Shown here: positions 7,751 to 60,002 of the stretch, in pieces
How the letters are laid out: the number at the start of each line of letters is the position of its first letter
How positions within the stretch are numbered: the first letter of the stretch is position 1
Assembly (NCBI RefSeq): GCF_044324875.1
Contig: NZ_CP172185.1
Reading direction: 5' to 3' (one strand)
Length of the DNA: 64,000 nucleotides
DNA from: Escherichia coli
GTDB taxonomy: Bacteria; Pseudomonadota; Gammaproteobacteria; Enterobacterales; Enterobacteriaceae
Notes under the pieces: generated by a model
What the model was told of the DNA's origin: nothing
What the model saw: only the letters and a program-made list of their open reading frames with translations
The model's database searches: none
Position numbers and translations under genes: made by a program

Positions 7751-8039
7751 ATGCAACAAAAAATGATTCAATTTAGTGGCGATGTCTCACTGCCAGCCAT
7801 AGGGCAGGGAACATGGTATATGGGCGAAGATGCCAGTCAGCGCAAAACAGAAGTAGCTGCACTACGCGCGGGCATTGAACTCGGTTTAACCCTCATTGAT
7901 ACCGCCGAAATGTATGCCGATGGTGGTGCCGAAAAGGTGGTTGGGGAAGCATTAACCGGTCTGCGAGAGAAGGTCTTTCTCGTCTCTAAAGTCTATCCGT
8001 GGAATGCTGGCGGGCAAAAAGCGATAAATGCATGCGAAG
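7751..8039 (+). pseudogene. yeaE: yeaE (aldo-keto reductase) 5' fragment, interrupted by IS insertion
   Basis: N-terminal 96 codons of YeaE (MQQKMIQFSGDVSLPAIGQGTWYMG...AINACE), then the frame runs into IS sequence and stops at 8056. Confidence 0.85.
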
Positions 8040-8241
8040 TGCAAAATGGCATCTGAATCGATCGCAGTTTGGCATTCGAATCGATCATGATTTGGCATCC
8101 ATCTCCGATCACAGTTTGGCATCACAATCGATCACGATTTGGCATGCTTCCGATCATTGATTGGCATCCTGCCAGTCACTCCGGGAATTAACTCTTTTCA
8201 CCACAGTCTCCATTGCCGTGTTTAAACCAGTGGAGACGTCA

Positions 8242-9807
8242 ATGTCCAGAAAGAGAAAATCCAGGAGCACTATGGAAACCTGTTTTAAGATCCTTCAGCT
8301 CAAGTTCGACAAGAAGCTGACTAACCGTTGTATCGGACTGACGTTACACATCAGCGCCTCAACCGTTTTTGAGGTTCTTGCCCGCTTCAAAGCCTCTTCT
8401 CTGTCATGGCCATTACCTGCTGATATATCCCATGACACGCTGGAGAAACTCATTTTTCCGCCCAAAGACACCTTTGCATCAGAGCTTGTAATGCCTGACA
8501 TGTTGTACTTCGATACGGAAATGAGAAAACCAGGTGTGACGCGGCAACTGTTGTGGATGGAATACAAGGCACAGGCGGGTAACAAAGCGATGGGATACTC
8601 GCACTTCTGCCGTTGCTACCGGGAGTGGAAAAAAACGCGACGTCTCTCCATGCGCCAGGAGCATCGTGCCGGCGAAAAGCTTTTTATCGACTTCTGTGGT
8701 CCTACGGTTCCTGTTATTAATCCGGACACCGGTGAGATACGCCGCGTGGCAATCTTCGTGGCCGTAATGGGGGCGTCCAACTATACCTACGTTGAAGCGT
8801 GCGAAGGTCAGGACATGATGTCATGGTTAAATGCCCACAGCCGTTGCCTGACCTTCCTGGGCGGCGTACCGAAGCTGCTCATCCCCGATAACCTCAGAAG
8901 CGCAGTGAAAAAGGCCGATCGATATGAGCCTGTCATCAACGACAGTTATCAGGCACTGGCTGAGCACTATGGCACGGTTATCATCCCGGCCCGACCACGC
9001 AAACCTAAAGATAAACCAAAAGCAGAAAACGGCGTCCTCATCGTTGAACGATGGCTTCTTGCCCGCATCCGTAATGAAACCTTCCACACGCTCAGGGCGC
9101 TGAATGCGCGCCTTAGGGAGTTACTGACAGACATGAATAACCGGCCAATGAAGGGGTACGGCAATCAAACCCGTGCAGAACGCTTCCGCATACTGGATGC
9201 GCCAGCACTCTCTCCGCTGCCTCTGGCACCTTATGAATACACGGAATACAAAGCTGTGAAGGTTGGCCCTGACTACCACGTTGAATATGCCCGTCACTGG
9301 TACTCCGTTCCACACGAACTGGTCGGTCAGCGTCTGTCACTGAAGGCGGGGCAGTCGGTGGTACAGCTCTGGCACAAGGGGCAGTGTGTGGCGCAACATC
9401 CGCGCAGCACACATGAATATAAACACACAACCAATCCGCTTCACATGCCAGAGCGCCACCGGCAGCACGGGACATGGACACCGGAACGCCTGATCGAGCA
9501 GGGAAAACGTACGGGCCCGTCCACAGGCCGGGTGGTTGAATCCATGCTGAAGGCAAAACCCCATCCGGAACTGGCTTATCGTGCAGTTCTGGGGCTGCTG
9601 GCACTTCAGAAAAAATACGGCCCGGAACGGCTGGAAAAGGCCTGTTACGTTGCCCTGCACTATAACGCCCCTGACAGACGCTTTATCGACAATCTGCTGC
9701 GTCACCATCGGGAGAACCTGGAGCTTCCATTATCCCGCCAGGGCGAACAACATCCGGCATATGCTTCAGAGCATGAAAACCTGCGTGGTCCGGGCTACTA
9801 CCACTGA
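8242..9807 (+). CDS. istA: IS21-family transposase IstA
   Basis: About 520-aa ORF with N-terminal HTH and DDE-type catalytic core typical of IstA; RBS GGAG upstream of ATG 8242; followed by istB. Confidence 0.85.
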   Translation: MSRKRKSRSTMETCFKILQLKFDKKLTNRCIGLTLHISASTVFEVLARFKASSLSWPLPADISHDTLEKLIFPPKDTFASELVMPDMLYFDTEMRKPGVTRQLLWMEYKAQAGNKAMGYSHFCRCYREWKKTRRLSMRQEHRAGEKLFIDFCGPTVPVINPDTGEIRRVAIFVAVMGASNYTYVEACEGQDMMSWLNAHSRCLTFLGGVPKLLIPDNLRSAVKKADRYEPVINDSYQALAEHYGTVIIPARPRKPKDKPKAENGVLIVERWLLARIRNETFHTLRALNARLRELLTDMNNRPMKGYGNQTRAERFRILDAPALSPLPLAPYEYTEYKAVKVGPDYHVEYARHWYSVPHELVGQRLSLKAGQSVVQLWHKGQCVAQHPRSTHEYKHTTNPLHMPERHRQHGTWTPERLIEQGKRTGPSTGRVVESMLKAKPHPELAYRAVLGLLALQKKYGPERLEKACYVALHYNAPDRRFIDNLLRHHRENLELPLSRQGEQHPAYASEHENLRGPGYYH

Positions 9808-9824
9808 CAGAAGGAACAACAGTA

Positions 9825-10579
9825 TGAGTGATAACCTGTTAAACAAACTGACCCAACTGAAACTCCCGGCGATGGCCGGGAGCCTGATACGGCAGCGGGA
9901 AACGCCTCAGACCTACGACGAACTGTCGTTCGAGGAAAGGCTGACGCTGCTGGTTGATGACGAGCTTCTGAGCAGGGAAAACAGCCGTGTGGCACGGTTG
10001 AGAAAAAATGCCGGCCTGAAATACCAGGCAACACCGGAAGGGCTGCGCTATCCGGCCTCAAGAGGTCTGCGGGCTGAACAGATGAGAGAACTGCTGAACG
10101 GCCACTACATAACCCACAGGAAAAACCTGCTGATAACCGGTCCGACAGGATGTGGCAAGAGCTGGATAGCCAATGCGCTGGGCGAACAGGCATGTCGACA
10201 GAAACACAGCGTCCGGTACTGTAGAACCGGGCGATTACTGGAACAACTGGCTCAGGGACGTGTTGATGGCAGCTGGCTGAAATATCTGAAACAGTTGCAA
10301 AAAATACAGGTTCTAATCCTGGACGATCTGGGGCTGGAACAGTTAAGTAACGCCCAGTGTAATGACCTTCTGGAGCTCATAGAGGATCGTTACGGACAAA
10401 GCAGCACGATAGTGGTAAGCCAGTTCCCGGTAGATAAATGGCATGGTCTGATGGAGAACCCAACAACAGCAGATGCCATCCTGGACAGACTGGTACATAA
10501 CTCACACCGAGTGGTCCTTCAGGGAGAGTCACTGAGGAAAAATCCCCCGGTAGTGGAAAGCAGCGAAAAAACGCGTTAA
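9825..10579 (+). CDS. istB: IS21-family ATP-binding helper IstB
   Basis: 251 aa from MSDNLLNKLTQLKLPAMAG...; Walker A GPTGCGKSW and Walker B ILDDLG; starts 15 bp after the istA stop. Confidence 0.88.
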
Positions 10580-10678
10580 AAAGCGGTAGAAAAAGTTAAG
10601 TTCCCGGTTGATCGAATGGATGCGAATCGCTGATCGGACTTCGATGCCAATCCGTGATCGAATAGAGCGGAATACGCA

Positions 10679-11249
10679 CGAAGCCAGTTTACGCCGTCTC
10701 AATACTGATTATCTCGATCTCTACTTATTACACTGGTCTGGCAGTTTCGCTCTCGAAGAGACTGTCGCAGCGATGGAAAAATTGATCGCCCAGGGCAAAA
10801 TCCGCCGCTGGGGCGTTTCTAACCTTGATTATGCCGATATGCAGGAACTCTGGCAGCTGCCGGGGGGGAATCAGTGTGCCACTAATCAGGTGCTTTACCA
10901 TCTCGGTTCACGAGGGATTGAGTACGATCTACTTCCCTGGTGCCAGAAACAGCAGATGCCGGTGATGGCTTACAGTCCGTTAGCTCAGGCCGGGCGGTTG
11001 CGCAATGGGCTGCTAAAAAACGCAGTAGTCAACGAAATTGCACATGCTCACAATATCAGCGCGGCACAAGTATTGTTAGCGTGGGTAATCAGCCATCAGG
11101 GTGTGATGGCGATTCCAAAAGCGGCCACGATTGCCCATGTCCAACAAAATGCGGCTGTGCTTGAGGTTGAATTTTCGTCAGCGGAATTAGCTATGCTGGA
11201 TAAGGCATATCCGGCACCAAAAGGAAAAACTGCGCTGGATATGGTGTGA
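10679..11249 (+). pseudogene. yeaE: yeaE 3' fragment (aldo-keto reductase C-terminal part)
   Basis: Frame resumes exactly at the target duplication with ASLRRLNTDYLDLYLLHW... through the YeaE C-terminus. Confidence 0.85.
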
Positions 11250-58788: not shown

Positions 58789-59115
58789 ATGACTAAAAAT
58801 ACTCGTTTTTCCCCCGAAGTCCGTCAGAGGGCGATTCGTATGGTTCTGGAAAGTCAGGGCGAATATGACTCACAGTGGGCGGCAATTTGTTCCATTGCCC
58901 CAAAGATTGGCTGTACACCGGAGACTCTGCGTGTCTGGGTACGCCAGCATGAGCGGGATACCGGAGGCGGTGATGGCGGGCTCACCACCGCTGAACGTCA
59001 GCGTCTGAAAGAGCTGGAACGTGAAAATCGTGAACTGCGCCGCAGTAACGATATCCTTCGCCAGGCTTCCGCTTATTTTGCGAAGGCGGAGTTCGACCGC
59101 CTCTGGAAAAAGTGA
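58789..59115 (+). CDS. IS629 transposase OrfA
   Basis: 108-aa [63 protein letters not shown]... matching IS629 OrfA. Confidence 0.9.
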
Positions 59116-60002
59116 TGCCACTGCTGGATAAGCTGCGTAAGCTGTACGGGGTCGGACCGGTATGCAGTGAACTACATATTGCCCCGTCAACGTATTACCA
59201 CTGTCAGCAACAGCGACATCATCCTGATAAACGCAGTGCCCGTGCGCAGCGCGATGACTGGCTGAAGAAAGAGATACTGCGCGTATACGATGGGAATCAT
59301 CAGGTATACGGTGTGCGTAAAGTCTGGCGTCAGTTGTTACGGGAAGGAATCAGGGTAGCCAGATGTACAGTGGCGCGCCTCATGGCGGTTATGGGACTTG
59401 CCGGTGTTCTCCGGGGTAAAAAGGTCCGCACTACCGTCAGCCGGAAAGCCGTTGCCGCAGGCGACCGCGTAAACCGTCAGTTTGTGGCAGAACGTCCTGA
59501 CCAGTTGTGGGTGGCTGATTTTACTTACGTCAGCACATGGCAGGGGGTCGTCTATGTGGCGTTCATCATTGATGTGTTTGCCGGATACATCGTGGGGTGG
59601 CGGGTCTCATCGTCTATGGAAACGACATTCGTGCTGGATGCTCTGGAGCAGGCGTTATGGGCCCGTCGACCGTCCGGCACAGTCCATCACAGTGATAAAG
59701 GTTCTCAGTATGTATCGCTGGCCTACACACAGCGGCTTAAGGAAGCCGGATTACTGGCATCAACAGGAAGTACTGGTGACTCGTATGACAACGCGATGGC
59801 GGAGAGCATCAATGGCCTTTACAAAGCGGAGGTAATACACCGTAAGAGCTGGAAAAACCGGACAGAAGTGGAGCTGGCCACACTCACGTGGGTGGACTGG
59901 TATAACAATCGACGATTGCTGGAAAGGCTGGGCCATATCCCACCGGCAGAAGCAGAAAAAGCTTATTATGCTTCCATCGGAAACGATGATCTGGCAGCCT
60001 GA
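59112..60002 (+). CDS. IS629 transposase OrfB (DDE integrase core)
   Basis: 296-aa ORF overlapping orfA by 4 nt; motifs [16 protein letters not shown] and [15 protein letters not shown]. Confidence 0.9.

Follow-up and report, generated by a model that had tools for sequence, protein, structure and literature searches.

Our results indicate that the tandem repeats at positions 8040-8177 and 10610-10678 of the 64,000-nt stretch of DNA analysed here (hereafter the window) are, with high probability, the multiple terminal repeats of an IS21-family insertion sequence (IS). By analogy with a structurally solved relative, they would be docking sites for the element's own transposase IstA, and the extra units would hold additional IstA. 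Such terminal repeats are an ordinary, expected feature of a known IS21-family element. The preliminary description of this region had read the repeats as an IS21-family transposase-binding array, and the accompanying istA and istB genes, the TG...CA tips, the 5-bp duplication and the 23-bp period bear this out by analogy.

Identity, Boundaries, and Distribution of the Insertion Sequence

Positions 8040-10678 (2639 bp, + strand) hold a complete insertion sequence with 5'-TG...CA-3' tips, delimited by comparison with full-length copies and an empty site. To judge by its sequence, it is an already known element of the IS21 family and belongs to the ISSso4 type. The tips (TGCAAAATGG... at 8040 and ...GGAATACGCA at 10678) carry imperfect terminal inverted repeats, with arms of 48-54 nt and 70-75% complementarity. 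The interrupted host gene is yeaE, coding for methylglyoxal reductase. Reading of 7800-8400 and 10400-10900 showed that the yeaE reading frame breaks at 8039/8040 and resumes at 10684. A 5' fragment (7751-8039, + strand) and a 3' fragment (10684-11249, + strand) were identified from the reading frame and genome matches, and for the 3' fragment also from the empty site. The IS insertion has inactivated yeaE. The target-site duplication is CGAAG, with its left copy in yeaE sequence at 8035-8039 and its right copy, found by flank comparison, at 10679-10683. The flanks joined with a single CGAAG correspond to an uninterrupted sequence in E. coli MS 200-1 (L001 position 5794), and this empty site fixes the IS boundaries and the 5-bp duplication. 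In addition, a predicted ORF at 10608-11249 starts with TTG within the right end of the IS and continues, in the yeaE frame, into the 3' fragment of the gene.

Copies matching the whole element (query 1-2639) were found on plasmids of E. coli, E. fergusonii, and Salmonella with 99.7-100% identity, the best at 100.0%. Of the 5,426 complete genomes of E. coli, 224 had near-full-length matches, with a coverage of 80% or more for a query comprising the IS and short flanks. A search of these 5,426 genomes for the exact yeaE/IS junction of the window gave no match, indicating that this insertion is not widespread, and the rest of the 64,000 nt held no further copy of the same IS. Solo shortened left ends of the IS are widespread, as some piece of its first 251 bp occurred in 1,700 of the 5,426 E. 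coli genomes. In MS 200-1, yeaE likewise carries the IS (L001 3001-5639), independently inserted, in the identical orientation, and with 6 nucleotide differences. It lies after nt 112 of the gene (nt 289 in the window) and is flanked by a 7-bp duplication, GCTGCAC. The two independent yeaE insertions may reflect coincidence or a locally preferred target.

Target-site duplications in the IS21 family measure 4-8 bp. The apparent length differed among copies of the IS and was 5 bp in the window, 6 bp in L002 and L007, and 7 bp in L001, L003, and L009; the relatives L005, L013, and L017 also had duplications of 7 bp. This spread looks real, though some of the extra matches could be due to chance. 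The 5-7 bp found for copies of the window IS differ from the fixed 5-bp duplications reported for insertions of IS5376 (PMC10122671).

The Rfam search of the IS yielded no RNA family. Elsewhere in the window, at 59070-59186, Rfam identified an ALIL pseudoknot (116 bits), an IS3-family frameshift signal. The IS3-family element bearing it is IS1203-like according to the annotation of matching genomes. Besides the IS described here, at least one other insertion sequence is therefore present in the window.

Anatomy of the Terminal Repeat Arrays

The left array consists of six head-to-tail units of 22-24 bp at 8040-8177 (138 bp). Phased from the tip, the unit is N5-TTGGCAT-N5-7-CGATC, and the units abut without spacers between them. 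The boxes TTGGCAT and CGATC are about 11-12 bp apart centre to centre, about one helical turn; they are conserved among the units, while the spacer sequences within the units vary. TTGGCAT occurs exactly on the + strand at 8069, 8092, 8116, 8139, and 8161, successive copies being 23, 24, 23, and 22 bp apart, and the terminal variant ATGGCAT is located at 8046, 23 bp ahead of the first TTGGCAT. It had been proposed that at least five copies, spaced 20-27 bp apart, extend to 8160. The number is right, with five exact copies plus the ATGGCAT variant, but the array reaches 8177 and its spacing is 22-24 bp. Likewise, the TTGGCAT motif on which that proposal was built is real, but the repeating unit is bipartite (TTGGCAT plus CGATC) rather than TTGGCAT alone. 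The suggested consensus (G/A)TTTGGCAT fits four left copies exactly, L1 (AAATGGCAT) and L6 (GATTGGCAT) being variants.

The units of the left array are all read on the + strand. The terminal unit L1 (8040-8063) is TGCAAA-ATGGCAT-CTGAAT-CGATC, followed by L2 (8064-8086, GCAGT-TTGGCAT-TCGAAT-CGATC), L3 (8087-8110, ATGAT-TTGGCAT-CCATCTC-CGATC), L4 (8111-8133, ACAGT-TTGGCAT-CACAAT-CGATC), and L5 (8134-8155, ACGAT-TTGGCAT-GCTTC-CGATC). In the innermost unit L6 (8156-8177, ATTGA-TTGGCAT-CCTGC-CAGTC), the second box is degenerate. The double unit L4-L5 is an 84% copy of the 47-bp double unit L2-L3, and Tandem Repeats Finder reported a period of 23 (4.3 copies) and a period of 47 (2.4 copies, 83% matches).

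The right array, at 10610-10678, comprises three units that are inverted relative to the left array and read on the - strand. They are the terminal unit R1 (10656-10678, TGCGT-ATTCCGC-TCTATT-CGATC), R2 (10632-10655, ACGGA-TTGGCAT-CGAAGTC-CGATC), and R3 (10610-10631, AGCGA-TTCGCAT-CCATT-CGATC). The units of one end are direct repeats of each other and are inverted relative to those of the other end; the period is 23 bp. TTGGCAT occurs once on the - strand at this end (10644-10650), within ATGCCAATC at 10644-10652; a one-mismatch copy, ATGCGAA, lies at 10620-10626, and a degenerate terminal copy, GCGGAAT, at 10667-10673. The preliminary description was correct in noting an inverted copy here, but the two that it listed, ATGCCAATC and GATTGGCATC, are one site read on the two strands (10643-10652).

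A further pair of 25-bp segments borders the arrays on their inner sides. One (ACTCCGGGAATTAACTCTTTTCACC, 8178-8202, + strand) lies just inside the left array and is kept in the Pectobacterium relative, and its inverted partner (AACCGGGAACTTAACTTTTTCTACC on the - strand, 10585-10609) lies shortly after the istB stop. The segment is not a repeat unit, nor is a terminator recognisable in it. Distant relatives have an inner inverted segment of their own at the equivalent place, for example GCAGCGACGCAGG in Pseudomonas elements.

Chance does not account for the repeats. Outside the IS, TTGGCAT has a background frequency of 8e-5 per nt per strand, from which about 4e-8 clusters of at least five copies in 99 nt are expected in the whole window, and the largest TTGGCAT cluster in 300 shuffles had two members. 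The window has five exact matches to TTGGCAT-N4-7-CGATC, every one of them at an end of the IS, compared with a shuffle mean of 0.03. A search with the fixed spacer, TTGGCAT-N6-CGATC with 2 mismatches, showed no window-wide enrichment (8 found, 7.4 expected), because the spacer varies between 5 and 7; the exact search with a variable spacer is the decisive one.

Transposition Genes istA and istB

Between the arrays lie two consecutive genes in the IS21-family order istA-istB, both on the + strand. The first, istA (8242-9807), codes for a transposase of 521 aa counted from the ATG at 8242, with matches to NCBIfam transpos_IS21 (E=1e-84) and to Pfam rve and Mu-transpos_C_2. The second, istB (9824-10579), codes for an AAA+ helper ATPase of 251 aa, with matches to Pfam IstB_IS21 (E=1e-60) and NCBIfam IS21_help_AAA (E=9e-77). 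The matches to transpos_IS21, IS21_help_AAA, IstB_IS21, and Mu-transpos_C_2 were all above the curated cut-offs, and the rve match in IstA, at 32.1 bits, was just under its cut-off of 32.6. Two in-frame ATG codons, at 8242 and 8272, lie 10 codons apart at the start of istA. GGAG is present upstream of the first, and the RefSeq annotation starts at the second. IS21 produces a pair of proteins, a full-length transposase and an N-terminally shorter cointegrase, and the double start of istA recalls this pair.

The window IstA matched the IstA of IS5376 with E=7e-14 in a single-sequence search and about 1e-24 with a profile of nine relatives (8b4h, 8q4d). This alignment begins at about residue 78-85 and covers the core and the barrel, not the N-terminal helix-turn-helix (HTH) region. 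In the AlphaFold model of IstA (pLDDT 79), N-terminal helical bundles (residues 11-51 and 87-134) are followed by an RNase-H-like core and a beta-barrel. A Foldseek search with the model gave 8b4h_A and 8q4d as the top matches (E=6e-20, 382-412 aligned columns, whole length), followed by TnsB and MuA. The N-terminal HTH region of IstA would thus match that of IS5376 IstA at the level of the predicted fold only. The model also has an extra C-terminal helical domain at about residues 404-487 (window positions ~9451-9702), which is common to the aligned long-IstA relatives.

Relatives and Conservation of the Repeats

The preliminary description had held that absence of the repeats from the ends of the matching reference element would refute its reading. 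This check came out in favour of the reading, as the repeats were found in the ISSso4 copy of S. sonnei, in plasmid copies with 100% identity, and in a relative from Pectobacterium with 82% identity. The S. sonnei copy, on plasmid pFORC11.1 and annotated as ISSso4 family, is 96.3% identical over its full length (2638 vs 2639 bp), and it shares with the window IS its tips, units L1-L5 and R1-R3, inner inverted repeat, and gene order. The window IS is an isoform diverged by 3.7% from this copy, and the NCBI name for istB of the window type is 'IS21-like element ISSso4 family'. The two differ in the first box of L6, which is TTGGCAT in the window and a decayed TTGGAAT in S. sonnei.

In the relative from Pectobacterium carotovorum, the left array also numbers six units, and none of their boxes is degenerate, L6 having CGATC. 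Between it and the window IS, 3 of 72 box positions and 11 of 66 spacer positions differed (Fisher p=0.022); for L3-L6 only, the differences were 2/48 in boxes and 9/43 in spacers (p=0.022). These sequence differences give modest support, from one pairwise comparison, for the boxes being under constraint relative to the spacers.

More distant relatives, with IstA proteins of ~510-520 aa and 39-53% identity to the window IstA, also carry arrays. Five left and three right units were counted in the element of Klebsiella pKpnC6 (boxes TTTCGGyAT plus CGGCCA), five and four in an IS1491-like element of P. aeruginosa (boxes ATTCCACG plus CCGGCCA), five and three in a Neorhizobium element, and three and three in the element of Pseudomonas pSTY (boxes ATTCCACG plus TTGGACA). 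All four have the 23-bp period, and the left units outnumber the right ones in three of the four. Like the window IS, they have an inverted repeat on the inner side of the arrays. Their box sequences differ from those of the window IS, and their target duplications were 7 bp where checked. The unit counts cover these elements and leave out the ISEc12, IS408-like, ISAs29-like, and Legionella elements, the end assignments of the last three being unreliable; the IstA proteins of these four groups are 39-47% identical to the window IstA. The ends of ISEc12 appear to have an internal palindrome in place of a 23-bp array. Across the window IS and its relatives, the counts were 3-6 left and 3-4 right units, and six left units were the highest number among the elements compared. 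A period and bipartite form that are kept while the box sequences drift are consistent with binding sites that diverged along with IstA, and are to be expected of a transposase-binding array.

Proposed Role of the Terminal Repeats

The ends of IS21-family elements have two or more direct repeats at intervals of 23 bp, with two conserved boxes each (PMC10122671, PMC11208146). In IS5376, these are the direct repeats L1/L2 and R1/R2, to which the binding of IstA has been shown by cryo-EM and biochemistry; CS1 is contacted by HTH-2 and CS2 by HTH-1 of the same IstA subunit, integration requires two complete repeats per end, and in the IstA tetramer the catalytic subunits sit on R1 and the structural ones on R2 (PMC10122671, PMC11208146). 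By analogy, the two N-terminal HTH domains of one IstA subunit would read TTGGCAT and CGATC in the window IS. From the homology of IstA to IS5376 IstA, we strongly infer that an IstA tetramer would dock with its four subunits on L1-L2 and R1-R2, the outermost two units of each end. This tetramer would pair the ends, cut at the terminal CA, and, together with IstB, insert the IS, giving rise to the 5-bp duplication. L3-L6 and R3 would be additional IstA sites, surplus to the known tetrameric core. The extra left units make the ends unequal and probably hold extra IstA beside istA, where they might, speculatively, serve as a loading platform and/or bring about autorepression or block read-through transcription. 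Counting against the docking of IstA at these repeats, the first box of R1, ATTCCGC, is a poor match to TTGGCAT.

The number of left units varies in nature. Copies of 2592 bp with four left units were found at at least three different sites with their own target duplications (L002; L007/L008; L009/L010), indicating that at least two of the six left units are dispensable, and one of these copies has intact genes. The 2592-bp copies carry differing hybrid units, and this sequence pattern suggests repeated unequal exchange between units. In addition, a left-end remnant with five units lies beside terW in the tellurite-resistance island SpLE1 of E. coli O157:H7 Sakai (L019 1495-1604), and one with four units lies near papX (L020 1454-1640).

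Tandem junctions of IS21 form a promoter from the abutted right and left ends. At the tool's threshold, no sigma-70 promoter was predicted in 7950-10800. Our own scan of the left array and the region behind it found only an 8-of-12 match to sigma-70 elements, at 8231 in the istA start region, and no promoter with at least 9 of 12 matches was found across the modelled right-left junction with spacers of 0-7 bp. As no sigma-70 promoter was found, an autoregulatory role of the extra units is only a guess.

Alternative Explanations

We tentatively propose, as a somewhat doubtful possibility, that L3-L6 form a tunable array holding IstA, as an autorepressor, a roadblock, or a loading platform in cis, in which the number of units (4, 5, or 6) would set the transposition rate and Dam methylation of the GATC in the units might modulate binding. 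It is alternatively possible, though unlikely, that function is confined to the two outermost units of each end, and that L3-L6 and R3 do nothing, having arisen neutrally by slippage or by unequal recombination between 23-bp or 47-bp repeats. The 84% similarity of L4-L5 to L2-L3, as a 47-bp tandem duplication, points to such an expansion, as do the polymorphic unit number (the four-unit copies at at least three sites and the five-unit Sakai remnant) and the decay of L6, which has CAGTC as its second box in the window and TTGGAAT as its first box in S. sonnei. The solved IS5376 complexes also need just two repeats per end (PMC10122671). However, the boxes of L3-L6 have been conserved over the spacers across 18% divergence (the 2/48 vs 9/43 comparison above, p=0.022), and distant relatives with unrelated boxes independently keep five left and three to four right units, which is hard to account for without selection. 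The CGATC box contains GATC, the Dam site. Transposition of IS10, IS50, and IS903 is coupled to passage of the replication fork via Dam methylation, and binding of IstA to the window repeats might be Dam-sensitive in the same way, although we regard this as quite improbable. GATC is present in eight of the nine units (8060, 8083, 8107, 8130, 8152, 10610, 10632, and 10656) and only five times in the 2.4-kb IS interior, the window average being 3.1 per kb; moreover, the hosts seen for this clade (Escherichia, Shigella, Salmonella, and Pectobacterium) are all enterobacteria, which have Dam. Against this, the Klebsiella relative uses CGGCCA in a Dam-positive host, and TGATCA boxes are found in the IS408-like (Burkholderia) and Legionella relatives, whose hosts have, to our knowledge, no link to Dam control. 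We know of no report of Dam control in the IS21 family. Given CGGCCA in Klebsiella and TGATCA in Burkholderia and Legionella, the simpler explanation for GATC is that it belongs to the recognition box, not that it serves Dam control.

The array could also belong to the host, as a regulatory repeat, replication iterons, a cluster of sigma-54-type promoters, or a mini-CRISPR, or have clustered by chance; the probability of this is close to negligible. The regular period would suit such an array, and TTGGCAT resembles a -35 hexamer and also the -24 element of sigma-54 promoters (TGGCA). However, the array travels with the IS to many unrelated plasmid and chromosome sites, begins exactly at the IS tip beside the target duplication, and is mirrored at the other end. 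Its units abut without spacers, they have neither a -12 TTGC nor a sigma-70 promoter nor an Rfam match, and the chance expectation is as low as that given above (~4e-8). Host ownership is refuted, as the repeats are distributed together with the IS. The sigma-54 reading of TGGCAT was rejected in its own right, as the sequence has no -12 TTGC at the required distance. The preliminary description had cautioned that the repeats could be mistaken for a mini-array or a regulatory repeat, and such a host label would indeed be a mistake, since the array moves with the IS and starts at its tip. Annotators should not label the 138-bp array as a regulatory repeat, mini-array, or promoter cluster; it indicates where a mobile element has its left tip.

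Taken together, the residual interest of these repeats is small and lies in the extra units and their copy-number polymorphism. The solved IS21-family transpososomes have two repeats per end, whereas left ends with 3-6 repeats and right ends with 3-4 are maintained in the clade of the window IS. The natural variants with four, five, and six units provide a ready series for probing additional transposase sites.

Comparison With Known Systems

IS21 itself has the terminal repeats L1-L3 and R1-R2. IS5376 of Geobacillus stearothermophilus (PDB 8b4h, 8q4d) shares with the window IS the istA-istB gene order, the terminal CA, a 5-bp duplication, and direct repeats at 23-bp intervals, each with two conserved boxes roughly a helical turn from one another. 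However, IS5376 has two repeats per end, compared with six on the left and three on the right in the window IS, and its box sequences are unrelated to those found here. The window IstA is also about 120-150 aa longer than IS5376 IstA, and the solved IS5376 IstA chains (~370 residues) are without the C-terminal helical domain of the window IstA. Multiple transposase sites at each end, unequal between left and right, are likewise known from phage Mu (L1-L3, R1-R3) and Tn7 (TnsB sites), whose transposases are related to IstA, the IstA model matching the structures of TnsB and MuA. In contrast to the units of the window IS, which are arranged strictly head to tail at 22-24 bp, the Mu and Tn7 sites are irregularly spaced or overlapping and function together with extra factors.
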